From positions 2,298,264-2,362,263 of the forward strand of contig BFEA01000013.1 of NCBI GenBank assembly GCA_003427395.1: DNA of 64,000 bases. Reading direction: 5' to 3'. Positions 8,785 to 56,196 of this stretch are shown one piece after another (the stretch's first letter is position 1; the number at the start of each line of letters is the position of its first letter). Position numbers and translations under genes: made by a program. Source of the DNA: Chara braunii. Lineage: Eukaryota > Plantae > Charophyceae. The notes beneath the pieces were generated by a model that worked only from the letters and a program-made list of their open reading frames with translations, did no database searches and was not told where the DNA came from.

Positions 8785-8797
8785 GAGGAGGAGGGAA
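8785..8797 (+). promoter_or_regulatory. Polypurine tract of element 1
   Basis: GAGGAGGAGGGAA immediately before the 3' LTR. Confidence 0.9.
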
Positions 8798-29819: not shown

Positions 29820-30596
29820 CCGGAAACTGACTCTGGGACCGACGACAAAGAACTATCGTGAGGCCACCCACTTTCGGAATAGAGTTAAAGAGTGCTAGGA
29901 AATTTATCAAGCGAGAAGTGGACGTAGGAGAGTCGTGTATCCACATTTTGGCGAAGGTAGACGACAACTGCGTCACCGCCATCTTGATTGGACGTGGGGT
30001 GCCTGCCAGCATGGGCTATTATGACCCACATTGTAGTAGGGGGTGATTGAAACCCCCCCGGCGGGTGGCCATGGCGCGACAATCGAGGACCTTGAGCACG
30101 AGCCTTCTTGAGAGGGCCCATTCAGGTTCCCTCGTGTGAGGGATGTTGACGAAATTCCTCTAACCTACCCCTCATGAAACACAAACTAACGGGGTTAACT
30201 TGCATGTATGCTGGTGGGTGTAGGGCCTATGAGGCTGAAGAGACCTGGCAAAGACCACCTCCAGATGCACCGTTCACCAGCCACGATGTACTGTCGAAAG
30301 ATTTGAGTGTGAGCCTGCCAATTGGCACCCGCAAGGTGGTGAACTATGTTGGGTAAGGCACGACCAGAGGAAGCTCTGGTAGAAGCGCGAAGTGTTACTG
30401 ATGTGCAAATCGCAGACAGGCTTGACTACAAGGGCGGACAACTAATGGAACCGCCTAGTAGCTGCTCCCCTCAGGAGTTTTCCCTTGGCAATACGAACGT
30501 GCAAAACGTTCGTCGGGCCTGGGTATAGGGTCGAGAGGTCAATTGAACCAGGCTAGTAGCTGGTTCCCTTCGAAGTTCGCTCAGGCCAGCCAGAGT
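29820..30596 (+). pseudogene. Diverged nuclear LSU (25S/28S) rRNA-derived segment within the 5' LTR
   Basis: Collinear LSU landmarks: AGAGTTAAAGAGTGCT..AAATT, TGAAACAC, ACCCGCAAGGTGGTGAACTATG, CCAGAGGAAGCTCTGG, ACTGATGTGCAAATCG, TGGGTATAGGG, CTAGTAGCTGGTTCCC. Confidence 0.85.
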
Positions 30597-31058
30597 TGTT
30601 GAAATTATGCACCGTACTAAGCAGCGCTAAGTGCTGCGCTATGAAGCGACAAAGAGAAGGAGATTTGTGGAGATACGGGGAAGAAGACAAGTAAGGGAGA
30701 AAGAAGAGGAGGGAGACGAACGAGAAGGACGGGGTTGCTACGAACCCGGTTGGAATCCGAGCCAGGTACGCGAAGGAAGAGACAAGGAAGTGGCGGAGGA
30801 GGAGAAGACAATGGTTATGGAGGATGGAGAAAACCTATAGCCTACTCGATCCTTAATGAAATCAGCAGCAGGGAGGATGTAAGGGAGCCGGTGGGGGAAT
30901 TGGGATTGAGAAAGGAATGGGAGGAAGTTGGAGGTGACGAGGAGAGGTGTACCTCCATTTCGACTTTGTGTGTCCTCGTACAGGTTGTTGTCGCCCTTTC
31001 CTTAATTTTGATCTGAAGATTTACTGAGGTTGCTGTTCCTTCCCTTTCTACTTTTCGA

Positions 31059-31571
31059 CTATGTATCACCCGCGGTCGTGACCGCAGGCGCTCGGCATCC
31101 CGACCGCAGCGGGCGGCGCCCGCGGCCAAGTGCAGTCGGAAAACCCCGACATTTTTAAATCCTGGGATAATAGGCCAAAAAATAAAAAAAAAATATGGGG
31201 TTTTAGGTTTTTGTGCGCTCTACAACTGCATACTTTTAGTTCTATTTTTTGACTTTCTTTTATTTAAAAAAAAAATGAAAAACAGAAATCCCTCAGGCAA
31301 ACGTTTTTCACTTTATTCTTTTAGTAAGAAAAATAAAGTAATTTGTTTGATTTTTATCTCAAATTTGGTAACGAATTTTCATATGACCCAAGGCAAAAGT
31401 TGTTCAGTTTATTTTTAGGCATAACATTTTTTTTTTTCTGATTTTTTTNAATTTTNTTTTTTCCTTTTTTTTTTTTCATGACCGCGGACTGCGGTCATGA
31501 CCGCGGCCTCGCGGCCGAGACCGCAGTCCACGGTCGTGCCCGCGCCGATCGCGACCGCGGGGGATTCATAG
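31059..31571. mobile_element. hAT-like MITE (513 bp)
   Basis: 20-bp TIRs matching at 18/20 (CTATGTATCACCCGCGGTCG / CGACCGCGGGGGATTCATAG); 8-bp TSD CTTTTCGA (31051-31058 / 31572-31579); CCGCGG subterminal repeats; absent from the sister LTR at ~50480. Confidence 0.93.
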
Positions 31572-34147
31572 CTTTTCGAATCTAACCACTATCGTGACAA
31601 GGGGTGGATAGGATCGGGGTAGTGTAGGCGGAAGGGGGGGGGATACATGAGGAAGACATTGCATATCGAAAGGGAGAAAGAAAGAGGACGAAAAACGTAG
31701 ATATTGGTCACTTCCTGACCGATTCGGACAATCTAAGACCCGACATAGAGGTTTTAAGCCATTCCGAATCGAATGGCCACGCCAAAATTTTGATTCGGAT
31801 TATGGTCTAGTAGATACGGTCACTAAAAACTGTGTGGAGTAGGAACTATCTTGACGACAGGTGTTGGCGGGTGTGCATAATCGCGGAAGCACGGAAGTAA
31901 GATGGCGAAGAAAAAGGGACGTTGGAAGAAGAGAAGAAAGGAGTGAGGGAGAGAACGATTGGAGGAAAGCAAATATAAAACAAAGAGAAGGCGGGGAGGG
32001 GGTGGAAGACACATACCTGGTGGTCGGTTTCACCAACATTAGTCGAAGTCGAGGTTTTCAGTTGAACACTGCTCGTCGGTAAGATTTGTCAGCTTCGTTA
32101 CCATCGAGACCCCACCATTCGTCATTACATTCGATTCCATCGAGCCGAGGCGTTGTGCTACACTACGAGGAGGAAAAGCATGGCAAAGAAATAATGAGGA
32201 CGAAGGACAAAGAAGGAAAGGAATGAATGTGAAAGAGAGAGAAGGGGATTGAGGTGTTGGTCGTCCGTTCGATGAAGCATGTTTTCCTAATAACACTCAT
32301 GGCGCTCGCCTCCGTGGTTTTCAGCACAGCGGTTCCCTTCCATGGATAATTCATCGTTTTTAGTGTATGTATCTTCCCATGTTTAGAGGGAGATTCATTC
32401 TCGTTTTTGTGCTTGGTGGTGTTGGATCGGGTCTACGTATTGTTGTTCATCAACTCGACTATCTTGCTGCCCATCGTGTTTGTTTGGCAAGATTGTCGTG
32501 CTTCCCTTTTGCGCACGCGGTCGCGGTTATCCATGTTGCTCGCCAATACTGTGCGTCGCCAGGCTCATCATTTTCTTACTCTTGTTTGTGTAGACATTTT
32601 GCATAGTGGTGGTCACCTGAGCGGTGGCCGGTTCCGCAGAAGCTCCCCTCTAGAGTGGTAGATTGTGTAGTATTTGACTACATGGTAGCGCTCAGCCCAA
32701 CAACATAGTTTTGAATCGTACATGTGTTTGGCCATGATCCTGGACAAGTACGAAGGAAGTTAAGTACGGGCAAAGGCGGAAGGAAAAGGAGATAAGGCGA
32801 CGAGGGGGGGAGGCGATACCGACAAGTTTGAATTGGAGGGAGTAGAGGAAGGAAAGTGCCAGGTAAAGTGAGCCAGCGCCTGCTTCACGTTAGTGGTGCT
32901 GGCACTTCGTCAGATGCACAGTTCGAGAGGTAAGCAACTTATCTGGAGACGGGAGTTCCAGGTACATCGGCTTGGAGAATACAAGGATTAACTGATTGAG
33001 AAAACGCCTGGCCATTTATTGGTTAAAGATACATACTGCCTGAATGATTTTCAATTAACGGACAGGGTCACAGCCTGTGGCGCACTGTCGAAAGACTGCA
33101 TTTACGATTAGCATGAGGAGTTTGACAACTCCGAGTTGAAGGAACCAGTGTTGTTTGCTGGTAGTCGAAACTATCTGTGTACGACGCTACTGTGTTTTTG
33201 GAGCGTTATTATGTTTTGTGGCATCTTTGTTAGCTCGCTACCATATACGTTGTCTTACTATGTGTCTGATGCTACCGCCATGTTTTAGTTGTAACGATTG
33301 CTAGACCACGAATTGTTGTTGAGTCACTATGTCGTTGTTACAACACACCGAAAGCTGCTTCAGCGACGCAATCGGGTGTTGCTGTCGAGCACCTTGATAG
33401 GTTACTATTGCAACAGCCTGGAAGCCATATTGCCACCTAGGACACTGTAGACTGCAACCCTTTCAAGCAAAGCTCCTGTCGATCAAAGGTCGTTGCTGCT
33501 GATCTCAAGTTCGTGGGAACCTGTTGATGAGTGAAGGCTACTGACCACTAGAAGTTGTCGCACCTTATTCCGGAGTTGCTGCACCTTATTCCGGAGGGGC
33601 TGATGCTGCTGATCTCGAGTTCGTGGGAACCTGTTTTTTTGGAATTGAGATTCTGTTGCGAAATAGGCCGCCTACTTAAACCGACTCTCGCAGTTGGCTG
33701 CCATGGGCTCTCATGATCTGAAGGCACCAAGGCCCTCCCGTGTGAGTTGAGCTGGCCCCTTCTCGTATCTCGAGCGTCTGACTTCTCTTCTTCGTTCCTT
33801 CTTCATCCAAGTCTAGTTCGTGTTCGGAGCGGAAGGCGGCAGGCGGGATTGCAATCCGTAGGACTGCATCAAGGCTTTGTGGGGGTTGACCCATCGATTG
33901 CGAGAGCTCTGTCGGAGCCCAGGCGGGACTGTGGAGGTAGGGAACTCAGAGGTAGTCCGTCACTATACCATTAGCATCCCAATAAACCCCTATCTATACA
34001 AACGTTGTGTTTGTTCTGTTTGAATTTGATTTGTGTGTATGTTTGTTTTCTTGTTTTTTCAAGACTTTAACTAAATCGAAAAGGGAATTTATTATGTGTG
34101 TGAATTCATCTGTTTGTGGTAAAAATCATGATCTTTGCATGCGACGA

Positions 34148-35050
34148 TTTGAAATGGGGTTGGAGATGAGGTTCTGCTGACTAATCCGGTCGCTTTGTTG
34201 TTTGCCTCAGACATTGAAATAGGGCTGGAGATAAGGTCCTCGTGACTGATCCGGTCGCTTTGCTGCTTGCATAAGACATTGAAATGGGGTTGGAGATAGG
34301 TCCTCCTGACTGTTCCGGTCGCTTTGCTGCTTGCCTAAGACATTGAAATGGGGCTGGAGATTAGGCCCTCCTAACTGATCCGGTCGCTTTGCTGCTTGCC
34401 TAAAACATTGAAACGGGGCTGCAGATGAGGTCCTCCTGACTGATCCGGTCGCCTTGCTATTTGTGTAAGACATCGAAATGGGGCCGGAGATGAGGTCCTC
34501 TTGGCCAATCCAGTCGCTTTGCTGAGTGAGTCAGGTTTGCTTGTTGACTTTGCTAAGGTCTGACTTTTCTCCTTGTGAGAATAGTCCAGCCTATAAGTGT
34601 GTTCGTGGTTGCATGGGGTTGAGCGAGAACAACTTGGAAAGTTAATCAACTAAGTAAAATACAAGACTAATGTTTTTGTGATCAGGACAAGCGAGAGATG
34701 AGGTTCTGCTGACTGATCCGGTCACTTTGCTGTTTGCCTAAGACATTGAAATGGGGCTGGAGACGAGGTCCTCGTGACTGATCCGGTCGCTTTGCTGCTT
34801 GCATAAGACATTGAAATGGGGTTGGAGATGAGGTCCTCTTGACTGTTCCGGTCGCTTTGCTGCTTGCCTAAGACATTGAAATGGGGTTGGAGATCCTAAC
34901 TGATCTGATCGCTTTGTTGATGCCTAAGACATTGAAACGGGGCTCCAGATGAGGTCCTCCTGATCCGGTCGCCTTGCTATTTGCGTAAGACATCGAAATG
35001 GGGATGGAGATGAGGTCCTCATGGCCGATCCGGTCGCTTTGCTAAGCGAG
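34148..35050. repeat. 65-bp tandem arrays in the 5' LTR (two blocks)
   Basis: Unit GACATTGAAATGGGGCTGGAGATGAGGTCCTCCTGACTGATCCGGTCGCTTTGCTGCTTGCCTAA; about 6 copies at 34148-34525 and again at 34695-35045. Confidence 0.92.
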
Positions 35051-36916
35051 TCAGATTTGCTTGTTGACTTTGCTAAGGTCTGACTTTTCTCCTTCTGAGA
35101 ATAGTCCAGCCTAAGTGTGTTCGTGGTTGCATGGGGTTGGCCGAGAACAACTTGGGAAGTTAATCAACTAAGTAAGATACAGGACTAGTGTTTTTGTGAT
35201 CAGGACAAGCGAAAGATGAAAACTTTGGATGAACGAACCTTTGTTTTGAATTGGCTGAATGCGTTGTGGACATGACATGCTTGTTGGCAATGCTTCGTCT
35301 TTTTGCTCCAGCTCTGTCTGTTTTCTGCATTATAGGGTAGTCTGTTAGTGCTCGCCGTGTGCTTGTGCGATAGGCAGGTAGATGCTCACTTTGTTTTTTT
35401 AGCATTTGTCTTTTCATGCATGATTGTTTTGGTTGGGCATTGGCTAGCCTCTGAGTTCGTAGAAGTTTTGAGAGCGTTTTTTCCTTGATGTAGATGTTGC
35501 CATAATTTTTGATAAATACTAAGTTAGTCAAGTTTAAGACATGTCGGCTAGGATAGGATATTGTTTAGTCTTTGGGGACAATAGGAATTATGAAAGTCTT
35601 CCTCTCTAAATGAAGTGCTGTCGAAATTTGTACCGGAACCAAATAGTTTGTTTGTTTTCAGGTATTTTCGGAGTCGCGAGTTTTTCTTTTTAGATTTGGT
35701 ATAGTAAATATTCTTCGAGCACACTTCCCTGAAAGAAGTGCTGTCGAAATTTTCGGGATTTTCACATCGTTATCGGATGCTAGTGCTAAGTAGCTTAGAG
35801 TGTGATACGGAGTTGAACTCCGTTAACTCGACAGGCGGTGCCTGGCTTGATTTTGTGACGCAGGTCATTGCTACCTGCAAGTGTTCTTTATCGGAGTGAG
35901 ACTTAGTTGGGTATGGCGAATTGCTCGCCAACTCGTGACTACTCTTATTTTCTTTCCTCTGGGGAGGGACGAGCGGATCCCGTCTCAAAGGGGCTTTGTT
36001 CTTTAGATTCTTAGTCGGACGTTGGTCCTGAGCCTGGAATTCGAGGTCCTTGTCCAGGACATCCTAAGCTCTTGTCCAACACAAAAGGGTTTTCCCTTTG
36101 AGCCGGATCTACGCGTCTTGCTTATCGTCACCCACTGCCTAAAAGACAGGGGCGCCGCAAGGGCCGCACAAGTTATCTTTCAGCCGTGCAATATCGTGAA
36201 GGAGGAACCCTTCACGATATTTCGCTTCCGACACTTGAGTGTCGTACGCAATCCCGAAACCCCTGAGAGGCTGCGCGGATGTGGGTAATGCATGAAGCGC
36301 CGCCATGACAACAGATCAAGTGAGTACACATGAATGAGCGTTATGTTTCCCTTAGCACCTACATTCTTTTTATGCAACTCTGCGCAGGCCTCGCTCAGAC
36401 ACGTTGGTCTTTTGAGTTATGGGTCAGAAAGAATGAAAAAGGGACTAGGCTTATTTGTTTGTCTGAGTTAGTTTGTTTTGTTGCGTGTCGCGTGGTCAGG
36501 TTAGGATGTCCTAGTGGACCGACGCTAAATCGCACCTGGGAGATTAGCACCCCAGCGTGATGTTTCGCGTACGGGTCCGAGCTAGGCGTGGACCACGCGT
36601 ACCCCCTATGCTACAACATAGGAGAAACGCCCTCGGCTGGGCCACCTCCGCGATTGCATGCAAAAGCTTCTGCGTGTGGTTTAGTAGCTCGACGGGGATA
36701 CGCCCACCCAAGGGATGGTGACAGCTCCCACGGGTGGAGGTAAGTTGTACCTCAGGAGACCCTGTGCTGTCGTAGGGACTCGATGGAGGTATAGTTGGCG
36801 CACTCGGACGGAGCGGCTACGCCGCTTCCCTTTTTCGTGCATCGACTTACGAATTCTGCCAATCCTGTGTGACACGGCCAGGAAGGTCCCCCTAGCGGGG
36901 CCGTGCGCTCAACATG

Positions 36917-36936
36917 TGGCGCCATTGTCGGGGATC
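36917..36936 (+). promoter_or_regulatory. Primer binding site, tRNA-Asp(GTC)
   Basis: TGGCGCCATTGTCGGGGATC versus TGGCGCCGTTGCCGGGGATC, the complement of the plant tRNA-Asp 3' end (Athila-type PBS); two transitions. Confidence 0.88.
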
Positions 36937-37400: not shown

Positions 37401-40400
37401 ATGGCAGACGATGAACTTAATGAGGCCAATGGCGCGGGCCAGCGGTCGGTTACGTTGGGTCAGCTGGTTGCTCTGCTCGATGGGCGAGCGATGACGCGAT
37501 TCAATATCCCGAAGGTTCGGGAAGGTGTCGTAATGGCTTGAGTTGCTCGAGCAGATTACTGACAAAATGATAGAGGAGGAGAAATTTTGTCAAATCTCTA
37601 AGTTTGTCTGGTGGGACATGCGACTAGAAGTTATGCGGGTAGCGGCTGAGGCCGCATGCAATTGGGGGAATTTTAAGGCGGAAATGCAGAGGCGATATCA
37701 GTTGGGGGATGACCTCCTTACGACGGAGGACTTGGAAAGATTAGAGAGGTCGGATTTCACGACAGTGGGTGCCTTCGCGACGACGTTCGTAAAGATGGTC
37801 AGAAAGGTTCCAAGACTAGCAGAAGAATCCCAATGTGCCATCTTCTTAAGCAACTTTACAAAGTGAAAGAGTGTTTCCCTAACAAGAAGAGGAGTTATAG
37901 GGCGAAAACTGACATAGGAAACAGTGAAACAAAGCTTGGCTGATGGAGAACTAGACCAGATATACCAGTTTCAGATGAAATAACAACGACAGAAACGAAA
38001 GACTTGAGTGGTTACTGAAGGTGCAGGTATCAACCTTCAACAACTCATTGCGGATGGAATACCCAAGTACCAAACCGACCAACAGAAGGCGGTAGGGAAA
38101 CAGGTTTTGACAGTGACCCAGTCACTAGCAAAAGCTGCGAAGGAGGTGGTGGAGCAAGTGGATAATGATGACGATGATGGAGAGGAAGAACCGGCAAAAC
38201 TGACGAAGAGTCAGAGGAAGGCGAGGAACCAGGCCGCAGGTGGCCAAGGTACGGGGAAGTATGCAGGATTGCACGCTGCTGCGACGACCCAAGTGACCAT
38301 GAATCAAGCAGGTACGAGTGGGGCGCAACCACAAGGGCCAACGCCGCTTGGACCTTGGCCAGGGACCATTCCTCCTGTCTGGCCAGGAGATAGTCCATAT
38401 GGCCCATAACCGTTTTACAACCAAGTCGAGCCACCCGTAGGAGGGCCGACTGCGCATACTGCAGGAGGGTACCCTAGTGTGCCAACTTAAGGAGTAAACT
38501 GGCAGGAGGGGGTCAACAACGACACCCCCGTCTCAAGTGGACCAGCCCGGTCAAGTGACGGGTCAAGGGCGAGGACAAAGCCAAGGGGGTAACGGGAAGG
38601 CAGTCAGGGTAGAGGCGGTGGAGGCCATGGACGAGGTTACGACAATGGTGGACAAAATGGACAAGGGGATGGACGTGGAGGCAACTGGAACAGGCAAGGT
38701 GCAAATGACAGGCCAAGGTTTGATTGGAGCAATGCTATCTGCCATCATTGTGCGTTAAAAGGGCATACCTTCAAGTTTTGCCAGATTCGAAGGGTAGATG
38801 AGAGGAATGACCTTATCTCAACGACATGGACGGGGATACCTATGATAAATATGGAAAATATATTGACCCCAAGATTCCTGGGGGTGTGCGAGAGGAGGCA
38901 CTCTGTCGAGCCGAACAAGGTTCGCCACCACCGGCTATGTTTCGACTCTGGCAAGAGGATTCCGAAACAACAGATTCGCTTCTTGCTTCAAAAGTAGCCT
39001 TGAAAGTTTCGCCAAAAGTTTTTTGACTAAATAAAACAACACCCACAAAACTAAAAGTTACTAGAATTTCTTCATTATAAAGTAAAATTTGTTTTGAACT
39101 TAGCACACTGAATAGTAGGCCAATGATAAAGATGGAAGAATTGGCCAATAGCGAGTTGACTGAGGACACCGGGGAGGAAGAGCCAGTGGTGACAGAAGTA
39201 GAGGAAGAGGAGGAGCCATATTGTCAAGAAAGGGCAAGTGAGACCATGGAGCGAACGGAAGACCTCATGGAGAAAATGCAGAGATTTAACTTGAAAATGA
39301 GGACCATTTGCGAAGAAGTGGCGAAACCAATGGTTTTCCTAGCAGGCCCAGAGACGGGGTCATCAAGTGCTAAGCCGGCTTGTAAGACCTTGGGCTCAAC
39401 CCCGCGATCAGGCATTGCATTTCGGCAGCCTCGAGGACAGCCTATGATTTCACAAGCCGTGTGCAAAAGGAGTAAAAAGGGAGACCACAGTAGCAATCAG
39501 GAGCCTCCGAATGAAAATCAACCACGAGAGAAGGAACCAATGATTGACGTCGGAGGTGAAGGCAATGAGGATGAGGAAGATGAGCGGCTAAGGAAGGAAG
39601 AGGAAGAACAAGGTGCTCAACGTGCAAAGAAGAGAAAGCCGGAAGATAGGCCAGAGAGAGCGGCGAGAGGAAAAGGCTCGCGAAACAAAAGTATGCGGTG
39701 CCATTGGAGGATGGCGTGGACATTGAAGCCATGGTTGATAGGCTTCTGGAAGGACATAATGACCTGCATAATTTGAAGGATATTGTCGCATTCACGCCTA
39801 ATCTTAGGGAAGGATTCAAGACGCGACTCTCGCGTCGAAGGGTGGCAAGTGTAAGATTGGCAGATCTTATTCCTGCCTGAGGCTCACTGGGCGGTTCTTG
39901 GGACAAAGATGGATTGGAAATCGGTTGGGACCGGGAGTGTGAACTTGTGCATAAAGGGTAAGCCGTGTAGCAGGATGTTAGACACAGGAGCGAAGACGAA
40001 CATCGTCAAAGAATCTGACGCACTCCGCTTGGGAATGGACATCGATCAAATGGTCTCGGGCTTCCTCTGTGGGGCAAGCATGAAGACTCCTTTTATTGGA
40101 CGAGCTCGAATGTGGTGATTGAAATCGGAAAAGTGAAGGTGCGGTCTTGCTTCTTCGTTATGCCCGATTTGGACCATCCTCTTTTGTTGGGAAGGTCATT
40201 CCTCTATCGCACTGAATCTATGATACTTAACAAGCATGATGGTAGAATGTGCGTCATCCTAAGCGATCCAGTCTGCGGCAACTACAAGATCATTACCTGT
40301 CATAATACAGGACCACGTAGCATGCGGAGCAGGCCAAACCTAGGTTCCTTTACGTATGAGGAATCGGAAGGGGAGAGGAGGAGATTAATGGGCGAGGACG

Positions 40401-43400
40401 AAGAGGAGTGTGAGCCTACTAGGGAGATGTGTTTAAGCCTAACAAGCATCAATGACGCCATGGAGATAGTGTCGGCTTATGGGATGGCGGATCCTATTGT
40501 CGTGCAGGCTTTGAGAGAGAATAATGGAAGATTGCGGCGAGGGAGAAGTGGAACTCATATATCGATTGCAAACAAGGGCAGGTGAGCCAAGGGTATCTCT
40601 GAGTCGTGCTGCAAGTCAGCCTTTTTTAGGGGTGGGCTCAAGCAGGGCTCCAAAAGGCTGACTCGATGTGGACAAATTGCCTATCATTAGCATTCACACT
40701 GTGCCTTACGTACCATGGAACTTGCGATGGTCACGCTATCCTAATCCGGCAGAGGAATGGAGAGTAGTTGACTACCTGGATGACAAGATTCATTCTCATG
40801 TAGTCGACTATTCAAGTGGACCTTACACATTGCCATGGTTCTGTTTTATCAAGCCTAACGATACCTTGAGGTGGGTACAGGACCTTCAACGCCTGAGTGC
40901 AGTAACGATACAAGATGCGGGAGGTTTATCGAACGCAGATTTGCTATTTGAGTCATGTGTCGACAGACCTATCATTTCTTTAGTAGACCTGTATTCCGAA
41001 TCTTACGCAACCATACATTGATGATTTGGTTGTGAAAGGGAGAAGGAAGAAAGATGAGATGGAGGTCATGCACAAGGAAAGGAAATTCGTCTGGAGCCAT
41101 ATACAAGATATTGCTTGGGTTCTAGACATTTTGAAGGATCATAACCTTACCGCAAGCGGACTAAAGTCGAGACATTGTATGTGGGAGGCGACCATATTAG
41201 GCTTCGTGTGTAATGAGATCGGTCGTCGACCTGACGTCAAGAAGACTAACAAGATACTCGAATGACCGGCCCCGGTCGAATCAGTTAGTGAAATTCGTAG
41301 CTTCCTGGGGACTTGTGGCTTTTGGCGAGTCTTCATCAAGAACTTCGCTGAAAAGACTGAGCAGTTAAGGAAGCTTGTGCGGAAGGATCGGGAATGAGAA
41401 TGGGATGAGAAGCAGGAAGGAGTGGTGAGTGGCTTGAAAAAGGAATTCAGAGAAGGAGGTCTGGTGTTGGGAGTCCTTGACTTTGAAGCGACGCCGATAC
41501 ATCCTTTCAAAGTGGAGACCGATGCAGGGCCTACAGTCTTAGGTAGCGGAGAGACCTTGAAGGTCGAAAGTCGAACCTTGAATGGCACAGAGAGGAACTA
41601 CTCACAATTTAAGCGAAAGACACTCACAGTTCTTCACAGTCTAAGGGTGTTCCACAACTACCTTTTTGGAAGGAGGTTTGTGCTGAGAGTGGATCCAACA
41701 GCATTGGTCGGCTCATTAAAGAATTATGCCCCATCAGACCCAACTATTGCCAGGTGGCTCACCTACGTATGGATGTTTGACTTTGAGTTGGAGCGCATAC
41801 CTGGGAATAAGAATTGGGCTGACAGGTTTAGTCGGATCAATTGGGATAAGTCCAGCAAAGGAGCTAACGAGGGTATACCTCCGGTGGACGCATTCTTGGA
41901 TGAGGAGGAGGATATGAAGCTCCATATCAACGTGCATGCAGTTGGGGTCAGCGGAGTCATTATACAAGGACAATTTGTTTTTCTTGCTCCTGTTGGGTAC
42001 GTAAAGCGTGCGGATATAGTCCTTAAGGACTTTGAGGAGGAGGATCCTTGGGGAGGAAAGGACGTTGAATGGATGGCCAAGCTTGCATTGGCAGAGACCT
42101 TCCGAGTAAGTGAAGATCCATTGGCCATTGAGAGTGGAGCTTACTCACTCGACATGCACACGAAGTATGTGGCGGATGTTATTTTCCTCGTCAACTCGAT
42201 CGTCCAAAGGCATGAGGATGGAGAAGGGAGTCGAGACCCTGTTAGAGATATGGAAGAGGACGAGTTCGAGGAAGGAGAGATAACGGAGGCTTTTCGCGCA
42301 GATGAGTACGAAGGCGTATACCATGAATTGGGCTTGCTTCTTTCGTGTGAGATAAGAGAAAGAGAAGCAACCAAGAAGGTACTCGAGATGCGACCACGTT
42401 TTTTGGTCCGGGATGAACACCTTTTCATCAAAAATGAGGTTGGCAGCCTGAATAGGGTAATCTGCGATCGAAATCGTCAGATAGACGTTATAGTCGCACT
42501 TCATGACAGGCGTGCAAATGGTCACAGAGCGTTTGCCATGATATATGCGAAAGCGCCTGAGCTTTATTACTGGGAAGGAATGAGCGAAATGATTCGCAAG
42601 TATTGCGAGTTGTGTGTTCCATGTCAAATTAGGGCGTCGACTATGTACAAGGAGCCATTGCACCCACTGATTGTACGTGATGCAGGGGTAGTAGTCCATC
42701 TGGACCTATTGGCAATGCCTCAGGGAGTGGGCGACTACAACTACATCTTCGACGCACGGGATAATCTTACGGGGTTTGTCGATGGACGAGCCATTCGCAG
42801 TAAGATGAACGAAACATTGGTTTGTGCATCTCCGAGTATTTTTCAATATATCCTTTCGTAGTAGAATTTGTGATGGACAGAGGGTCGGAATTCACCTGTG
42901 GAGAAGTTAGAACCTTGTTGGCGGAGTATGGCGTACAAGCGTGTTACACGACTAGGGCACATCCGCAGGCGAACGCCCCAGTTGAGAGAGTGCATACCAC
43001 CATCACGAATCTACTGGCGAAATGGGCAAACGGCAAGGAGAATCAGTGGCCTAAGCATTTGCGCACAACATTCTTTGTGGAAAATAGTACCATTAAGAGA
43101 TCCACGAAGCAGGGGCCAACAACGCTATGGTATGGGAGGTATGCCACACTCCGGATAGAGAGCTTTCTGAAGACGTGGAGGAGGCAGGATATGGAGAGCA
43201 TCTGTCCTTCGAGGAATTGCTGGATTTGCGGGCCAGACAAGTTGGCATAGCAGAAGAGAGGATCCAGGAAGCGGCTGGTCGAGTAACAGAAAGTCGGTTG
43301 AGGGACAAGGAGAGGTGGGATCCCCTCCCATGAATCAGGAAGGAGCCATTGAAAGTCGGAGATGTGGTGTTACTATATGACTCCTCTCTAGAAAAACATT

Positions 43401-43552
43401 GGTCTCGTAAGTTGGACAAGTGATGGTTAGGCCCATATCGCATTGGACGGTGCGGGCAGCACGAAGCGTATGAGATTGAGGACCTTAACGACACGCCGTG
43501 GAGAGATTGGGTCTCGGGTTCGAAACTGGAAAAGTTCAGACCGCGAGACTAA
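37401..43552 (+). pseudogene. gag-pol: gag-pol of element 3 (many stops and frameshifts; RT core partly deleted; no chromodomain)
   Basis: Capsid-like 37401-37990; CCHC CHHCALKGHTFKFC ~38740-38782; PR MLDTGAK ~39975; RT WFCFIKP..LRWVQDLQRL, LVDLYS, YIDD at ~41014; RH VETDAG; INT H-H-CC, MDRGSEF, NAPVERVH, WLGPY. Confidence 0.92.
38960..39133 (-). pseudogene. atp4: Mitochondrial atp4 (orf25/ymf39) N-terminal fragment (NUMT) inserted in element 3
   Basis: AT-rich insert translating [58 protein letters not shown], recognisable as streptophyte mitochondrial ATP synthase subunit b. Confidence 0.85.
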
Positions 43553-46276: not shown

Positions 46277-47958
46277 GAGTTTTTTTACTTCAGATCTCAG
46301 GATGCAAGCCATGTACTATATGTAGTTGGTGATTAGATCTGACTCGTGTTTTTGTTGACTGTACGTACATGATAGGCTGCTAGCTTTAGTAGGTTGGCTT
46401 GAGTAGGGGTTTCAGAGATTGCGGGTCCAGTTTTGGGCGAGTTTTGTGTGAGTTTTGTGTGAGTTTTGTGTAGGTCTTTTTGTGAGATTGGTGTGTGTTT
46501 GGTGTGAGTGTACGTATGATATGACTTTTCAAGGTAGGACATGGAGTTAGCGAGTGCCTTTGAGAGTTACGTTGTTTCGTTTAGGGGCGCTGCTCCAATT
46601 TTTTTTCGGATAATGATACCCATATTCGATTCTTCATGATTGATTTTAAGGCCTCACTGTGTATGCCCTATTGTTGGGATTGATTCAGACATATGAGTCT
46701 CGTGGGGAAACAGGGAGCCATGGAATATTCTCACAGTGTGAACTTGTGTTCACTACCCTTGCATCTGTGATGTTTGTAATTTGTTGGTTGTGAATAAGTT
46801 GTTTGATTGTTGAACAAATTGTTACTGACCTTGATTGCATATGAATCAGTGTATGAAAGTCAGTGAAAATTATTCGATAAAGATGCATGGAAAAAGCCTG
46901 GATCGAAAAGGCAGCCTAAATGTTTGATGGGAAGGGGGCCCGCTTGAGGAGCCGCCTGATTATCAATGTGAGTCGAAAATGAAAATTTATGATTATAACT
47001 TGTTTCATTAAGGTAAATAAAACTTTGATTTTTGCAGAAAATTGTCAGTGAAAAGCGGTTCGTATAATGAGAGGTTTCTTCGAAAGAGAAACTTGTTTGT
47101 GAGGCTCTAGGGTCGGCGGTCGTGTTTGCCATGATCAAGCAGAAAGACTGCAAGCATTAAAAGCTGGCTCAAGAGTAATTTGGGAGGCCTTAGCCGGGGG
47201 CTAAATAGGCATCGTTGGGGCAATCCCCAATGTGGGTTGCTGTCCCCCCTAACCAGGACAACGGACCCCTAGCTTAAGGACAAAGGGTTGATCTGCACCA
47301 TTATCCATGGCTCATAATATATATCGGATTATTATGGTTACTATTTCTATTACTTTCATCATATGGAAGGGCTAAATTAAGCCAAGTATCGGGTCCCTCC
47401 AAAGGCTCTAATTAAGGTGACTGCTAGGGGGTACTTAGGTCCAAGAGTCAGAGAATCGCCTTAGCAATATGCAAGAAATGTAGGCAACATCGTGGCTTAA
47501 CGGCACGATGAACCTTGGTTTGGGCCGATCATCCAAACTATGGTGGGCTGAGGGCAGGACTATAACCCACCTGTGATTAGACACAAGGCCGGGTTGAGTT
47601 TTGATTTAATTGCATGGAGTGAGCTTTGTGCATCACTATGTCTGTCGCAAGTTGAGCTGCACAAGGAGGTGTGCTTTTATATGGTAGGCCACTCAGGAGG
47701 GTATGCTACTCATTTCGATTGCAGAATGAGTTACCCAGAGAAGTATATTTTGGTTTTGCCTAAGCTACTCTAAAGGGGTGGGCTACCTATGTTTGTTGTG
47801 TGCTGCAGTTTATTCCACTCAGGGCAATTGTCTTGCCTTAAAACCCGCGCCCAAAGATGACGGTTTTTTGATAGCCCGATTCAGACAGAACCCAACGGAA
47901 GTCGGAAGGCGTCTAGGACAAACGGAAGGGGCTGGTATTTGAACATTGAAGCTAACCT

Positions 47959-48028
47959 AGGGCGGTAGTATAAAGAAAGTATCCCTGTGAGTCAGGCAGG
48001 AGGTGCAGGTTGGACTCCTGCTCGCCAA
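47959..48028 (+). ncRNA. tRNA-Asp(GTC)-like cloverleaf in the 3' UTR of element 3 (mimic or relic, not a functional tRNA gene)
   Basis: Acceptor GGCGG/TCGCC; D arm GTAT..GTAT; anticodon stem CCTGT/GCAGG with 7-nt loop GA-GTC-AG; variable AGGT; T stem GCAGG/CCTGC with loop TTGGACT. U33, the D-loop GG and C56 are lost. Confidence 0.7.
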
Positions 48029-49139
48029 AGGGACGTCACATAACTAAAATACCAAACCCCAAGCCGAGTCCTTCCGATTATATGGATTTGGTTATCCATC
48101 TGCTCAGTCTATGCATTCACCTTTGTTCACGTTCACACATTATAACCTTTACCAAAGCGACGAGGACGTCGCTTAACGGGGTCTGGGAGGACTGTCATAG
48201 CAAACGCCCTTACAAGGGTATTTGCCGACCTTTTAAAAGGTCACACTGGGAGCGTCCTTGATCAACGTAAACGCGTCGATAGGGCAAATCTCGTCAGGGC
48301 GCTCACCTTGGCATCCTCGCTACTGACAAAAGTCCGAGCCAAAATGCAAACGAATTAGAGAGTGTGTGGAGCACGCATTATTGTGTTGCGCTGTGAGGTG
48401 GTCGTTTAGTTATCGGTTGTACCAGGACGGTGGAAGGTGTCAAAGGCCATAGGGTCCGATTACCTTTGCTATAGTTTTCAATTTGGTTATATATATTTTT
48501 TATTTCATAAAGACTAACCTCACTCCACGAACCTGCTCTGCCTATAGCGGGACACGCTACAACATGATAAAAACTTTACCTTGCCTATATGCGGGAGGTT
48601 TATGATTGGACGACACATCGAAAGGCGCGGCGTTGGCTGACCTAGTATGGGGGAAAGTTTGGAAGTTCGACAAAGTATGTCGTGCGCCCGACGACCTGGA
48701 TACTAGGTGACCACAAACCTAGGCGTGGGGGGCGTCTTCCGACGGCCAGAAGATTGGCCGGTAGGCCAAGGCGGAGGCCTGGTTTGCGCACGTAGGACCA
48801 ATCACGGTTTCGCGACTATTCATACGCAGGTTCACACTGACCTATCTTAGCCCTTCGACCTGGTTCTAATGGTTACGGTACTGGACTTTCAAGCAATAGG
48901 TTTGGGGTTCGAGGTCAGCAAGCAGCGATGGAGCAAAGAAGCGCGATCGGTGGAGACTGAGGGGTCGAGGGTCTTAAGGGACTATCCCCTTTGGTTTTTG
49001 TGAGACAGGCCCAAACCTGGGTTCGACTGACAAGACCAAGAGGGTGTCGGCAGGTCCTCGTCCTCTTCAATCCCAGTATTTTTATTTTGTTGATTTATTT
49101 ATTATTTCTTATTCATCTGCATTTTCTCGTCGGTTGACC

Positions 49140-49900
49140 AGGCTGGAAACTGGATCTGGGACCGACGTGAAAGAAGTACCGTGAGGGCGGATGAAAACAA
49201 CTTCTGGAAGGGAGTTGAAGAGTGCTAGGAAATTTATGAAGCGAGAAGTGGACATGGGAGAGTCGTGTATCCACATTTTGGCGAAGGTACACTGCGGCTG
49301 CGTCACCACCATCTTGATTGGACGTGGGGTGCCTGCCAGCACGGGCTATTATGACCGACATTGTGGTAGGAGCGATTGAAACCCCCCCCGCGGGTGGCCA
49401 TGTCACGAAAGTCGAGGACCTTATTGAGCGGGCCCATTCGGGTTCCCGCATGTGCGAGATGCTGACGGAATTCCTCTAACCTACCCATCATGAAACACAA
49501 ACTAACGGGGCTAACGTGCATGTATGCCGGTGGGTGTAGGGTCTATGAGGCTAAAGAGACCTACAGATGCACTGTTCACCAGCCACGATCTACTGTCGGA
49601 AGACTTGAGTGTGAGCCTGCCCATTGGCACCCGCAAGGTGGTGAACTATGTTGGGTAAGGCACGGCCAGAGGAAGCTTCTGGTAGAAGCGCGCAGTGTTA
49701 CTGATGTGCAAATCGCAGACAGGCTTGACTGCAGGGGCGGACAGCTAATGGAACCGCATAGTAGGTGATCCCCTTTGGAGTTTCCCCTCGGCAATACGAA
49801 CGTGCAAAACGTTCGTCGGGCCTAGGTATAGGGTCGAGAGGTCAGTCGAACCAAGCCAGTAGTTGGTTCCCTTCGGAGTTGGCTCAGGGCAGCCAGAGCT
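49140..49900 (+). pseudogene. LSU rRNA-derived segment within the 3' LTR
   Basis: AAGTACCGTGAGGG..GATGAAAA..ACTT..GGGAGTTGAAGAGTGCT, plus the same downstream landmarks as 29820-30596. Confidence 0.85.
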
Positions 49901-52900
49901 GTTGAAATTATGCACCGTACTAAGCAACGCTAAGTGCTGCGCTAAGAAGCGACAAAAAGAAAGAGCCCAGAGCAGTTGAAATTATGCACCGTACAAAGCA
50001 GCGCCAAGTGCTGCGCTAAGAAGCGGCGAAGAGAAGGAGACTTGTCGAGATACGGGGAAGAAGACAAGGAAGAGAGAAAAGAAGAGGAGGGAGACTAACG
50101 ACAAGGACGAGGTTGCTACGAGACGGTGAAATGGTGGCGTAGGAGAGAGTAGAGGGGGTTGCATGAACCTGGTTGGGATCCGAGCCAGGTATGAGAAGGA
50201 AGAGAGGGAAGTGGCGGAGGAAGAGAAGACAATGGGTATGGAGGATGGGGAAAACCCATAGCCTACTTGATCCTTACTGAAATCAGCAGCAGGGAGGATG
50301 TAAGGGAGAAGAAGGTGGGGGAATTGGGATTGAGAAAGGAATGGGAGGAAGTCGAAGGTAACGGGGAGAGGTTCACCTCCGTGTCGACTTTGTGTGTCCT
50401 CGTAGAGGTCGCTGTTGCCCTTTCCTTTTTTAATTTTTATCTGAAGATTTACGGAGGTTGTTGTTTCCTCCCTTTCTACTTTTCGAATCTAACCACTATC
50501 CTGAGAAGGGTGGATAGGATTGGAGTAGTGTAGGCGGAAGGGGGGGGGATACGTGAGGAAGACATTGCATATCGAAAGTGAGAAAGAAAGAGGATGAAAA
50601 ACGTAGATATCGATCACTTCTTGACCGATTCGGACAATCTAAGACCAGGAATAGAGGTTTTGAGCCATTCCGAATCGAATGGCTGCGCCAAAATTTCGAT
50701 TTGGGTTATGGTCTAGTAGATATGAGCACTAAAAACTGTGCGGAGAAGGAGCTATTTTGACGGCATGTGTTGGCGGGTCTGCATAATGGCGGAAGCACGG
50801 AAGTAGGATGGCGGAGAAAAAGGGAAATTGGAAGAAGAGAAGAAAGGAGTGAGGAAGAGAACGATTGGAGGAAAGAAAATATATAATAGAGAGAAGGCAG
50901 AGAGGGGGTGGAAGACACTTACCTTCTGGTCGGCTTCATCAGCATGAGTCGAAGTCGGGGTTTTCACTTGAACGCTGCTCGTCGTTAAGATTCGTCAGCT
51001 TGGTTGCCATCGAGACTCTACTGTTCGTCATCACATTCGATTCCAGCGAGCTGAGGCGTTGTGCTACACTACGAGGAGGAAAAGCATGGCAAAGAAATAA
51101 TGAGGACGAAGGACAAAGAAGGAAAGGAATGAATGTGAAAGAGAGAGAAGGGGATTGATGTGTTCATCGTCCGTTTGATAAAGCATGTTTTCCTAATAAC
51201 ACTCATGACGCTCGCCTCCATGGTCTTCAGCACGGCGGTTCCCTTCACAAAGATCATTATGCATCTTCTGGTATTTCACCGGATGATTCATCTTTTCTAG
51301 TGAATGTATCTTCCCATGTTTTAGAGGAAGATCCATTCTTGTTTTTGCGCTTGGTGGTGTTGGATCTGGTCTACGTATTGTTGTTCATCAACTCGACTAT
51401 CTTGCTGCCCATCGTGTTTGCTGGGCAACATCGTCGTGCTTCCCTTTTGCGCACGTGGTCGTGGGTATCCATGCTGCTCACCAATACTGTGCGTCGCTAG
51501 GCTCGTCATTTGGATACTCTTGTTTGTTGTAGACATTTTGCATAGTGGTGGTCGCCTGAGCGGTGGCCGGTTCTACAGAAGCTCCCCTCTAGAGTGGTAG
51601 ATCCTGTAGTATTTGACTACATGGTAGCGCTCAACCCAACGACATAGTTTTGAATCGTACATGTATCCGGCCAAGATCGTGGTACGGGCAAAGGCGACGA
51701 GGGGGGGAGGCGATACCGACAAGTTTGAATTGGAGGGAGTAGAGGAAGGAAAGTGCCAGGTAAAGTAAATCAGCGCCTGCTTCGCGTTAGTGGTGCTGGC
51801 ACTTTGTCAGATGCATAGTTACCTGGAGACGGGAGTTCCGGGTACATGGGTCTGGCCAATGCAAGGATTAACTATTTGAGAAAGCTCATGATCATTTATT
51901 GGTTAAAGAAGCTCATGACCATTTATTGGTTAAAGATACGCATTGCCTGAATGATTTTCGATTAACGAACGGGGTCCCAGCCTGTGGCGTACAGTTGAAG
52001 GACTGCATTTACGATTAGACAACTTCGAGTTGAAGGAACCGGTGTTGTTTGTTGGAAGTCTAAACTATCTGTGTACGGTGCTGATGTGTTTTTGCAGCGT
52101 TATTATGTTTTGTGGCATCGTTGCTACCTCGCTACCATATACGCTGTCTTACTATGTGTCTGATGCTACCGCCATGTTTTAGCTGTTACGACTGCTAGAC
52201 CACGAACTGTTGCTGAGCCACTATGTCGTTGTTACACCTTATTCCTGAGACACACCGAAAGTTGCTTCAGCGACGCAATCGAATGTTGCTGCCGAACACC
52301 TCGGTAGGTTACTGTTGCAACAACCTGGAAGCCATATTGCCACCTACGACATTGTAGACTGCAGCCCTTTCAAGCAAAGCTTCGGTAGGTTACTGTTGCA
52401 ACAACCTGGAAGCCATATTGCCACCTACGACTTTGTAGACTGCAGCCCTTTCAAGCAAAGCTATTATCGATCAAAGGTTGTTGATGCTGATCTCAAGTTC
52501 GAGAGAAGTTGTTGATGATTGAAGGTTACTGACCACTAAAACTTGCCGCTGATGTGGATTCCGGAGTTGGTACACCTTATTCCGGAGGGGTTGTTGCTCC
52601 TGATCTTGAGTTCGTGGGAACCTGTTGCTGTTGGAATAGAGATTTTGTTGCGACATCGGCCGTCTGGTTAAACGGACTCTTGCAGTTGGCCGCCATTGCG
52701 GGCCCCTCATGATCTGAAGGCACCAAGGCCCTCCCGTGTGAGTTGAGGTGGCCCCTTCTCGTATCTCGAGCGTCTGGCTTCTCTTCTTCTGTCCTCCTTC
52801 ATCCATATCTAGTTTGTGTTCGGAGCGGAAGGCGGCAGGCGGGATTGCAACCCGTAGGACTGTATCAAGGCTTTGTGGGGGTTGACCCACCGATTGCGGG

Positions 52901-53146
52901 AGCTCTACCGGAGCCCAGGCGGGACTCTGGAGGCAGGGATCTCAGAGGTTGGCCATCACTATACCATTAGCATCCCAATAAACCCCTATCTATACAAACG
53001 TGGTGTTTGGTATGTTTAACTTTGACTTGTGTGTATGTTTGTTTTCTTTTTTTTTCACGACTTTAACTGAATCGAAAATGGAATCTACTATGTATGTTAA
53101 TTCATCTGTCTATGGTAAAAATCATGATTTTTGCATGCGATGATTT

Positions 53147-53520
53147 CAAATGGGGCTGGAGATGAGGTCCTCCTGACTGATGCGGTCGCTTTGCTGTTTG
53201 CCTAAGACATTGAAATGGGGCTGGAGATGAGGTCTTCCTGACAGATCCGGTCGCTTTGCTGGTTCCATAAGATATTGAAATGGGGCTGGAGATGAGGTCC
53301 TCCTGACTGTTCGGTCGTTTGCTGCTTGCCTAAGACATTGAAACGGGGCTGGAGATAAGGTCCTCCTGACTGATCCGGTCGGTTTGCTGCTTGCCTAAGA
53401 CATTGAATGGGGTTGGAGATGAGGTCCTCCTGACTGATCTGGTTTCCTTGCTGTTTGCTTAAGACATCGAAATGGGGCTGGAGATGAGGTCCTCCTGGCC
53501 AATCCGGTCGCTTTGCTAAG
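53147..53520. repeat. 65-bp tandem array in the 3' LTR (about 6 units)
   Basis: Same unit as 34148-35050. Confidence 0.92.
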
Positions 53521-56196
53521 TCGGTCAGATTTGCTTGTTGACTTTGCTAAGGTCTGACTTTTCTCCTTTTGAGAATAGTCCAGCCTAAGTGTGTTCGTGG
53601 TCGCATGGGGTTGACCGAGAACAACTTTGAAAGTTAATCAACTAAATAAGATACAGGACTAATGCTTTTGTGATCAGGACAAACGAAAGATGAAAACTTT
53701 GGATGAACAAACCCTGGTTTTGAATTGGTTGAATGCGTTGTGGACATGCTTGTCGGCAATGCTTTGTCTTTTTGCTCAGGCTCTGTCTGTTGTGTGCATT
53801 ATAGGGTAATTTGTTAGTGTTCGCCTTGTGCTTGAGCGATAGGCAAGTAGATGCTCACTTTGTTTATTTAGCATTTGTCTTTTCATGCATGATTGTTTTG
53901 GTAGGGCATTGGCTAGCCTCCGAGTTTGTAGAAGTTATTGGAGCCTCTTTTCCTTAGGGTAGATGCTGCCAATTTTTTCGCTAAATACTCGGAAGTTCGT
54001 GAAGTTTAAGAGATGCTAGCTAGATTAGGATATGGTTTAGTCTTTGGGGACAATGGGAATTATGAAAGCCTTCCTCTCTAAAGGAAGTGTTGCCCAAATT
54101 TCTACTGGAAACCAAATAGTTGGTTTATTTTCATATATTTTCAGAGTCGTGAGTTTGTATTTGGTATTGTAAATATTCTTCACACTTCCCTAAAAGAAGT
54201 GTTGCCGAAATTTTTTGGATTTTCACATCGTTACCGGACGCTACTGCTTAGAGTGCGATACAGAGTTGAACTCCGTTAACTCCATAGGTGATGCCTAGCT
54301 TGATTTTGTGACGCAGATCATTGCAACCTGCGAGTGTTCTTCGGAGACTTAAGCTTCATCAACTCCTACCCACCATGATACCCTCGTCCAGATGTCTGTA
54401 ACCCCGTAGGGGAAAGGCATTTCCGTGTGAATAAAGTTCCTATTCTTTGAACGTCTCTTGAATGGCCATGCAAAAGTTGTGTGAATCGGGGTAGGCGGGT
54501 ATGCCTTTGTCGAGTGGGGGTCGGAAAGGAGTTTGTGGGACATGAACCTGGGAGAAAAAGGGGTTGACCACGTTTTGTGGCATCTGTGTATGGATTTTCA
54601 TTGGGTTTCATGTGTGTGTAGGTAGGTATGGGAGCGAGGGCTCGGTCCTAGATCGAGAGTGATATGGAGGAATGAGTGCAGGGTGCGAGTAACAAGGTTC
54701 AACTATGGCTGTGAGAAAGACTCTCCCTGATTTCCTCCGATGCTCCCCCTTTTCTTTTTATTGTTTTACTTCTATCTCACGCATCTAGCAAGTAGGCAGG
54801 AGTAGCTGTGCTCAAGGATTAGCGTTCGATCCTCTATTGGAGTGAGACTTAGTTAGGATTAGCGCTCGATCCTCTATCGGAGTGAGACTTAGTTGGGTAT
54901 GGCGAATTGCTCGCCAACTCGTGAGTACTCTTATTTTCTTTCCTCTGGGGAGGGACGAGCGGATCCCGTCTTAAAGAGGTATTGCTTTTTAGATTATTAG
55001 TCGGACGTTGGTCCTGAGCCTGGAATTCGAGGTCCTTGTCCAGGACATCCCAGGCTCTGGTACAGCACAAAAGGGTTTCCCCTTTGAGACGGACCTACGC
55101 CTCTTGCTTATCGTCACCCACTGCCTAAAAGACAGGGGCGCCGCAAGGGCCGCACAACTTATCCTTCAGCCATGTAATATTGTGAAGGGTTCCAATATCG
55201 TGAAGGAGGAACCCTTCACGATATTTTGCGTCCGACACTTGAGTGTCGTAGGCAATCCCGAAGCCCATGAGAGGTTGCGTGGATGTGGGTAACACATGAA
55301 CCGCCACCATGACAGCAGATCAAGTGAGTACACATGATTGAGCATTATGTTTCCCTTAGCGCGTGCATTCAATTTATGCAACTCTGCGCGGACCTTGCTC
55401 AGACACATTGGTCTTCTGAGTTATGGGTCAGGAAGAATGAAAAAGGGACTAGGCTTATTTGTGTGTCTGAGTTAGTTTGTTTTGTTGCGTGTCGGGTGGT
55501 TGAGTTAGGATGTCCTAGTCGACCGACGCTGAAGGAGATCAACGCCCCAACATAACGTTTCGCGTATGGGTCCGAGTTAGGCATGGACTGTATGCTACAA
55601 CATACAGGAAACGTCGTCGGCTGGGCCACCTCTGCGATTGCATGCAAAAGCTTCCGTGTGTGGTTTAGTAGCTCGACGGGGATACGCCTACCCAAGGGAT
55701 GGTGACAACTCCCACGGGTGGAGGTAAGTTGTACCTCGTGAGACCCTGTCCCGTCGTAGGGACTCAATGGAGTTACAACTGGCGAGCTCGGCCAGAACGG
55801 CTACGCCGCTTCCCTTTTTCGTGAAGCGACTTGCGAATTCTGCCAATCCTGCGTGATGAGGCCGGGAAGGTCCCCCTAGCGGGGACCGTGCGCTCGACAT
55901 CGGGTCAGCTATTCGCAGTTAGAGTGAGTGTAGGAAATCTGGATTAGTGTCGGCCTGAAATTGTGCAACTTTGCAGATATGTCCCTCGCGAATTTCACCC
56001 CTGGCGGATACCACGGTTAACCCTTAGTTGTAGATGCTTGTCTGTTGAAAAAGCATTCGCGTGTGGCTCGCCAGAGTTGGAAAATTTGGTCACGTAGATC
56101 TTGGAAAACAAAATTACGAATGTATCCCTAAATTGTACTATATAGCCTCGCAGACAAACGCAGTAGTCAAATGAACAAGTCATTGCTGGCTTACCC

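Follow-up and report, generated by a model that had tools for sequence, protein, structure and literature searches.

Layout of the locus

The window, by which we mean the whole stretch of 64,000 nucleotides of Chara braunii DNA that was analysed, carries a large LTR retrotransposon with a tRNA-like cloverleaf in its 3′ untranslated region (Table 1).

Table 1. Coordinates of the retrotransposon and of the structures in its RNA
Feature	Coordinates	Strand	Basis and remarks
Putative 4-bp NCGG target site duplication, left copy	28867..28870	+	right copy 55900–55903, one mismatch
5′ LTR	28871..36914	+	TG...CA ends, about 8.0 kb; self-comparison of the window
Eukaryotic LSU-rRNA-like segment, 5′ LTR	30195..30563	+	Rfam 86.3 bits, E 7.8e-19; last ~80 model positions present twice
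PBS	36917..36934	+	2 nt past the 5′ LTR; complements a CCA-ended tRNA with G73
Decayed gag-pol	37401..43546	+	order protease, RT, RNase H, integrase; many stops and frameshifts
Predicted long imperfect carrier hairpin, cloverleaf at its tip	47900..48079	+	closing helix of 10 bp, 47900–47909/48070–48079; inner helix about 47928–47941/48047–48060
Block common to diverged copies	47904..48117	+	flanks not alignable at 80%
tRNA-like cloverleaf, GTC at 47991–47993	47959..48028	+	same sense as the element RNA; direct reading, scan, relaxed ARAGORN, Rfam
Purine-rich tract, putative PPT	48178..48192	+	adjoins the 3′ LTR; PPT assigned from position
3′ LTR	48193..55899	+	TG...CA ends, about 7.7 kb; self-comparison of the window
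LSU-rRNA-like segment and second partial copy, 3′ LTR	49511..49866	+	Rfam 67 bits; partial copy 22.8 bits, E 0.00085

The two LTRs are 81–89% identical by segment when the window is compared with itself. The element is flanked by ACGG on the left and TCGG on the right, and a paralogous site without the insertion, near 63912, reads CCGG. The features that mark a Ty3/Gypsy element are all present (TG...CA LTRs, PBS, PPT and the domain order), and the RNase H and integrase domains can still be recognised by Pfam in the decayed gag-pol. Among 263 protein matches the best 120 are all named Chara braunii, with a top identity of 82%; of ten weaker representatives that were looked up, nine are also from Chara. 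The pol relatives belong to a very large Chara family whose identities, among the matches listed, span 82% to about 45%. From the arrangement of LTRs, PBS, PPT and target site duplication, together with the decayed gag-pol and the Chara-named protein relatives, we therefore conclude that this is an old charophyte Ty3/Gypsy insertion of 27 kb with 8-kb LTRs.

A first-pass annotation, made from the sequence, had called the PBS at 36917 one for tRNA-Asp. Its position holds; the isotype is presumably Asp, by comparison with the land-plant tRNA. The same annotation had put the cloverleaf just upstream of the PPT. It does lie upstream, with a gap of 150 nt to the PPT-like tract and 165 nt to the 3′ LTR, and is 11 kb away from the PBS.

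Detection of the cloverleaf

The acceptor stem (47959–47965/48022–48028), U8-A9 (47966–47967), the D stem (47968–47971/47979–47982, loop of 7 nt), the anticodon stem (47984–47988/47996–48000, with GTC in the middle of a 7-nt loop), a variable loop of 4 nt and the T stem (48005–48009/48017–48021) follow one another with canonical tRNA spacing, and 19 of the 21 stem positions pair in the window copy. Direct reading and a cloverleaf scan thus agree with the four arms, spacing and centred GTC described in the first pass. That scan, which required spacing and pairing on both strands of the 64 kb, returned 47959–48028 as its sole match. Chance alone gives a mean of 0.067 matches per window, and none once U8-A9 is required (60 block-wise dinucleotide shuffles).

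Detection by general tRNA finders depends on the cutoff. ARAGORN calls no tRNA here under default settings; with -ps90 it calls tRNA-Asp(gtc) at 47958–48030, one of two calls in the window. Its weaker calls within the LTR have broken stems and were rejected as tRNAs. With the Rfam tRNA model a stretch of 111 nt scores 22.5 bits (E 0.0064), short of the gathering score of 29, and Rfam scans of 18 kb and of the whole window did not report the cloverleaf. A relaxed search, which the first pass had proposed, therefore succeeds with ARAGORN and stays under the line with Rfam.

Pattern scans found no other copy of the mimic in the window and none in viral contigs and metagenomes. Protein-based locus scans (alignment A1, 17 of 235 proteins) yielded no confirmed relative among contigs from metagenomes, viruses and prokaryotes, and in tblastn none of the 235 related proteins matches the 3′ untranslated region or the LTRs of the element. 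The other Gypsy elements of the window, which are 25–35% identical to protein P0001 and too distant to serve as a test, have no cloverleaf. Their PBS we take to be of the Met type.

Copies among the sequencing reads

The cloverleaf is a feature of the element family, present in many copies, and is not private to the window copy. In the DNA run X1, 312 contigs fall on 47860–48240 and 35 cover position 47996. Their summed depth is about 500–1100 over the cloverleaf and 1000–1500 just before the PPT, which is of the same order. Two diverged contigs, with 25 and 33 differences, align over 47904–48117 only. The downstream border of this common block is well supported, with depth dropping to 64–253 over 48120–48158, eight loose ends at 48117, and 48117–48118 as the end point of half of the eight X1 pieces listed; the upstream border comes from the two contig records.

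Variants were taken from the best 40 of 85 rows of the X1/X7 table, the remainder being presumably rarer, as the lowest shares listed are about 25%. At two positions the window copy differs from the others, which pair better: X1 has A at 47996 in 100% of its depth (35 contigs) and T at 48028 in 99% (23 contigs). With these majority bases 20 of 21 stem pairs form. No variant is seen among the best 40 of 85 rows at 47989, 47990, 47995 and 48012, which implies that the family as a whole has G32, A33, G38 and G56. Within the cloverleaf, common polymorphisms are confined to 47974, 47975 and 48013 (shares of 25–46%), all three in loops (P = 0.06).

Over 47880–48120, 18 of the 19 listed variant rows were used (47882 was omitted), 15 of them with an X1 share of at least 24%. 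Thirteen of the variants listed at that share lie in 47900–48080, where four keep a predicted pair, four close one, five are unpaired and none breaks a predicted pair. Just beyond the hairpin, the high-share differences at 47898 and 48083 break predicted pairs in small side hairpins. Of three rows with a low share, two break a stem of the cloverleaf with no listed change in the partner, at 48008 (6% of X1 depth, five of seven X7 reads) and at 47987 (four of seven X7 reads, none in X1). The first pass had proposed checking other copies for anticodon conservation and for covariation: among the best 40 of 85 variant rows no anticodon variant occurs, and no double-sided compensatory change within the cloverleaf is found either.

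Of the polyA runs, X6 has 2 reads of 8.9 million and X7 has 48 of 16.7 million on a 381-nt stretch. These reads are about 7–10 deep over the cloverleaf and show no piles of starts or ends; they are too thin for inference on expression or processing.

Bases kept and lost

For comparison, 120 natural tRNA-Asp loci were collected, of which 27 had no recognisable layout; 68 distinct sequences remained, and 55 after 13 with fewer than 19 pairs were dropped. Against these the mimic retains A37, R57, A58 and U60. It also has U8, A9, A14, A21, GUC, U54 and U55, bases that our patterns fixed in the natural set, and an intact G53-C61 pair. It departs from natural tRNA-Asp at 32, 33, 38, 56 and 73, at position 1 and in the D-loop GG, which 54 of the 55 natural sequences have; C56 is present in all 55, and U33 had been part of the pattern used to collect them. 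The loss of D-loop GG, U33 and C56 was noted in the first pass, and we add Y32, C38 and G73. A functional tRNA gene would have G18-G19, U33, C56 and a score above threshold, all of which are wanting here. The discriminator position, 48029, is A; the helix runs on past it, leaving no free CCA end.

The label Asp is given because the triplet is GTC, the D arm is compatible and the PBS is presumably of that isotype. The D arm had been described as Asp-typical, and typical it is, without being specific: among distinct tRNAs with the same D arm, Asp accounts for 29 of the 81 from viruses and 2 of the 99 from prokaryotes, in sets (120 viral and 122 prokaryotic loci, 21 and 16 of them unparsed) in which cytosolic eukaryotic tRNAs are barely sampled. 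Nor are the stems nearer to Asp than to other isotypes in the viral and prokaryotic sets. The eukaryotic AspRS identity set, as given in PMC9976931, comprises G73, G10·U25, G34, U35 and C36, of which the mimic lacks G73 alone. The same source states that G38 reduced aspartylation of human mitochondrial tRNA-Asp. That G10·U25, G34, U35 and C36 are kept is what keeps the idea of an AspRS decoy alive, as far as can be read from the bases.

The 3′ side of the mimic ends in CGCCA, like the last five bases of the primer. Compared with the primer 3′ end deduced from the PBS, three of five T-stem letters and none of seven acceptor-strand letters match, yet 10 of these 12 positions are paired in the window copy and 11 of 12 in most others, so a recent copy of the primer tRNA can be set aside, in line with the first pass. 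The stems had been called rewritten but still paired; the pairing stands, and the rewriting of the anticodon stem is weaker than claimed, because CCTGC/GCAGG occurs there in six distinct natural tRNA-Asp genes.

The anticodon loop, 47988–47994, reads TGAGTCA, a heptamer with five occurrences in the window on the + strand. It is presumably an AP-1/GCN4-type DNA motif, and GTC could conceivably be retained for such a DNA-level reason. At 29827, seven nucleotides complement the anticodon loop; this match is missing from the 3′ LTR and was dismissed as chance.

Predicted fold and probable constraint

The predicted carrier hairpin is about 180 nt long, and 47900–48079 has a folding z of −2.78, yet 3 of 37 other folding windows score lower; values for the cloverleaf (−1.47) and for 251 nt (−1.46) are modest. 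In ViennaRNA the cloverleaf is less stable than the best fold by 3.0 kcal/mol, and its D and T arms have probabilities of 0.01 and 0.04. The competing fold keeps the acceptor and anticodon helices, which therefore occur in both predictions, and replaces the D and T arms by pairs 47965–47968/48018–48021 and 47979–47983/48002–48006. The first pass had considered that a GCAGGAG/CTCCTGC hairpin might dominate; it is this different, extended fold that is preferred, by the 3.0 kcal/mol given above. Natural tRNA-Asp is often mis-predicted as well: an equally large energy gap is found in 11 of 55 sequences, an equally weak T arm in 5 of 55 and a D-arm probability below 0.1 in 27 of 55, which puts the mimic within the worse fifth. 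A four-arm fold of the mimic is plausible on these models. A reading of the carrier hairpin as a MITE was dropped, as no target site duplication was seen by eye.

About a third of the conserved loop positions have changed while the stems still pair. Under neutral decay, in a simple binomial model, at least 19 of 21 pairs are expected to survive with P 0.001–0.07 and at least 20 of 21 with P 0.0001–0.017, values to be read knowing that the site was noticed for its intact stems. GTC is kept with P 0.22–0.34 under the same model, and the anticodon alone is therefore no proof of selection on the anticodon. If the primer tRNA was the donor, many compensating changes were needed; with a different donor tRNA the pairing was inherited.

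Proposed origin and role of the mimic

The structure is a real, family-wide, tRNA-derived feature of a giant algal retrotransposon; it is probably constrained, and its putative role as a decoy is testable. Taking the parts separately, derivation from a tRNA is almost certain and constraint on its structure is probable, while docking of AspRS on it is a possibility that we hold tentatively.

The reading we place first, itself provisional, is that a captured primer tRNA-Asp has been kept as an uncleavable mimic on top of the 3′-untranslated hairpin, where it likely acts as a putative AspRS decoy. Its likely source is the element's own primer, and a switch of template by the reverse transcriptase onto the co-packaged tRNA would have left a sense copy, which the orientation of the mimic fits. 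Since RNase P/Z would cleave a normal tRNA embedded in the genomic RNA, selection would have preserved the stems and let the bases of the elbow and the Pol III boxes go. AspRS would then bind the anticodon and D arm and could not charge the mimic, since G73 and a free CCA end are missing. Once bound, the enzyme would bring tRNA-Asp to the RNA, or release tRNA-Asp uncharged for priming, in the manner of LysRS on the tRNA-like element of HIV-1. The first pass had proposed recruitment of the primer tRNA as an alternative; by base pairing this is not supported, as the mimic is in tRNA sense, and complementarity of the mimic to the PBS start is 5 nt only. The pattern of losses (not cut, not separately transcribed, not charged) is what would be expected of a tRNA retained as a binding surface in genomic RNA, and the LTRs, with their sense pieces of LSU rRNA, are evidence that abundant host RNAs were acquired in this lineage. 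Against a decoy stand the loss of U33 and C38 and the 11 kb to the PBS, unlike the HIV-1 element in its PBS domain.

In its fullest form this proposal would have a Gypsy family domesticate its primer tRNA as a complete decoy, edited where RNase P and Pol III look and preserved where AspRS reads, with an LSU-rRNA-derived domain alongside, so that the RNA would mimic both halves of the translation machinery and gather synthetase, primer and perhaps ribosomal factors. We regard that full version as doubtful.

Ranking just behind the AspRS decoy, and possible in its own right, is a generic structural role, in which the captured primer tRNA caps the 3′ hairpin for packaging, dimerisation, export or a pause of reverse transcription near the PPT, with the anticodon simply inherited from the donor and without a part for any synthetase. 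Several observations suit such a cap equally well: the common block is three times the length of the cloverleaf and its flanks pair mutually in the predicted fold, capture of a packaged primer explains the PBS match by itself, chance retention of GTC has the P of 0.22–0.34 given above, Y32, U33 and C38 are gone from the anticodon loop, and the D and T arms form in one predicted fold only, the acceptor and anticodon helices in both. What a mere cap leaves unexplained is that the four Asp identity elements outside the acceptor were all retained, as was the entire D-stem sequence, when the acceptor and T stems were replaced, and that no anticodon variant appears in the best 40 of 85 rows.

Ribosomes read the U-turn base and the elbow of tRNA, and the loss of both here counts against a role in RNA traffic or translation, be it plasmodesmatal movement from cell to cell or a 3′ ribosome-binding enhancer working with the rRNA-like segment 1.5 kb downstream. 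By analogy it has some appeal: in plants, the mobility of mRNAs is promoted by tRNA-like structures (PMC10226581), a viral 3′ tRNA-like structure is described as binding ribosomes, and the tRNA and rRNA pieces of the element both lie at its 3′ end in sense orientation. We consider such a role unlikely.

It is also improbable that the cloverleaf is a functionless remnant of a tRNA gene or tRNA-SINE head that the ancestor acquired long ago, drifting since with its stems intact by luck. The absence of six or seven near-invariant loop bases, the cloverleaf not being the best predicted fold and the existence of minor stem-breaking variants are what drift would leave. Yet the observed pairing has a P of 0.001–0.07 under neutral decay (for a site noticed by its intact stems), diverged copies retain the block and not its flanks, and the block, unlike a SINE head, begins 55 nt 5′ of the tRNA start and pairs downstream.

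The AspRS decoy supposes that the mimic escapes processing. The first pass had also suggested an RNase P/Z processing site. PRORP requires G18, C56 and R57; with C56G, cleavage by AtPRORP1 was 0% and 18% on two substrates, and C56U had hardly any effect for PRORP3 (PMC5039416, Table 2 for the C56G values). The mimic keeps R57, has G at 56 and has no D-loop GG, and processing is unlikely because C56G blocks plant RNase P. A processing site, or a Pol III unit releasing a small RNA or self-primer, is thus very improbable: U54-U55, R57, A58, G53-C61 and the primer-like CGCCA end are in place, but C56G and the missing D-loop GG, the lack of Helenus-type boxes (YGG box A, GGTTC box B), an acceptor helix that extends into flanking pairs of the long stem, and the 5-nt complement to the PBS start all speak against it.

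Relation to known systems

In the green alga Chlamydomonas, tRNA-Asp-related SINEs, units of a SINE-like kind, are associated with Gypsy elements. The tRNA-Asp likeness and the link to Gypsy are alike in Chara, where the cloverleaf is promoter-less and internal. The tRNA-gene-like sequence in HIV U3 and the bipartite PBS of Ty3 are complementary to the primer, whereas the Chara mimic is in sense.

The closest functional parallel is the tRNA-like element of HIV-1, which human LysRS binds (PMC5689005). In both systems the RNA of a retroelement mimics its own primer isotype and is proposed to engage the cognate synthetase; that of HIV-1 is part of the 5′ PBS domain and has been shown by measurement to bind, whereas the Chara mimic is a four-arm, tRNA-derived cloverleaf in the 3′ untranslated region, known from sequence alone. 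As to an anticodon that agrees with the primer isotype, GTC is present and the PBS is compatible with G73, its assignment to Asp being presumptive.

Helenus, Cassandra and Ajax (TRIMp3) are likewise LTR retrotransposons in which part of the sequence stems from tRNA or rRNA genes (PMC10886601); they are short and non-autonomous, with the small-RNA piece in the LTR and Pol III boxes kept. The Chara element differs in its 27 kb and gag-pol, in an internal tRNA piece that has lost the boxes and kept the stems, and in LTR rRNA that is LSU rather than 5S. In plant viral 3′ tRNA-like structures and in mobile plant mRNAs, too, a long RNA takes the form of a tRNA close to its 3′ end (PMC10226581), the viral structures being terminal and chargeable and the Chara mimic internal, with no G73 or free CCA and with a real tRNA layout.

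Among Gypsy lineages, Phygy, Athila and TatII resemble the element in domain order, in having a non-Met PBS and in that no chromodomain was found. The parts of PMC6317226 available give the following comparison. The 4-bp NCGN target site matches Phygy (ACGG/TCGG, one mismatch), whose Trp/Thr primers, length of 7.7–10 kb and lack of an extra ORF the Chara element does not share. The presumed Asp PBS and the large LTRs match Athila and TatII; Athila has a 5-bp duplication where the Chara element has 4 bp, and Tat requires an extra archaeal-type RNase H, none of which was found (no second RNase H family in a 487-aa piece scanned with Pfam or among the domains listed for P0001). At 27 kb the element exceeds the lineage sizes listed there, which reach 24 kb, and those parts mention no tRNA-like 3′ structure for Phygy, Athila or TatII. 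The element thus has some features of Phygy and some of Athila and TatII, and departs from each lineage in others.

In the open full-text literature, mostly titles and beginnings of abstracts, with subscription papers and repeat databases aside, we found no account of a Gypsy element, from Chara or from plants, with a tRNA-like structure ahead of its PPT, and none of LSU rRNA within an LTR. An LTR element with sense tRNA and LSU-rRNA pieces, not met with in the literature so searched, would be notable even without AspRS. Models of primer choice and loading in plant LTR retrotransposons are mostly taken from yeast and HIV (PMC12786077, in the accessible part of which the word 'synthetase' is absent). 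A primer-matched cloverleaf in the element RNA offers a direct test of synthetase-assisted primer loading beyond retroviruses, and the mimic would be an example of a tRNA recoded to evade the enzymes that process it. With pol relatives at 82% to ~45% identity, the large Chara family makes a test of anticodon against PBS feasible from the public genome.

Other features of the element and the window

The LSU-like segments of the LTRs are in sense and strongly diverged, and correspond to Rfam model positions 675–954, with tandem parts that have diverged to different degrees. In the Rfam alignment many pairs are retained with altered letters. On visual inspection the likeness perhaps begins about 350 nt further upstream, which Rfam did not confirm; Rfam found no further rRNA or tRNA pieces in 28871–30190 or 49080–49520.

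Tandem units of ~65 nt lie within the LTRs at 34104–35040 and 53100–53550, and the 5′ LTR has a 520-nt duplication. The 5′ LTR alone also has an AT-rich insert of roughly 500 nt (31058–31572) with GC-rich inverted ends and a MITE-like look. At the start of the LTR, 48193–48223, summed X1 depth is about 20–30 times that of the adjacent internal region; this excess suggests many solo LTRs, or sister families with different 3′ untranslated regions.

On the 3′ side of the integrase, 44100–46270 is a long decayed sense reading frame with a partial match to the C-terminal third of P0001; three pieces of it that were scanned gave no Pfam family, and its start looks gag-like by eye. Elsewhere in the window, 979–9720 is a young Gypsy element whose LTRs are 99.8% identical over 923 nt and whose pol is split among several frames, and 11375–12250 is an ORF with an AAA_11 helicase domain, likely an exon of a host gene.
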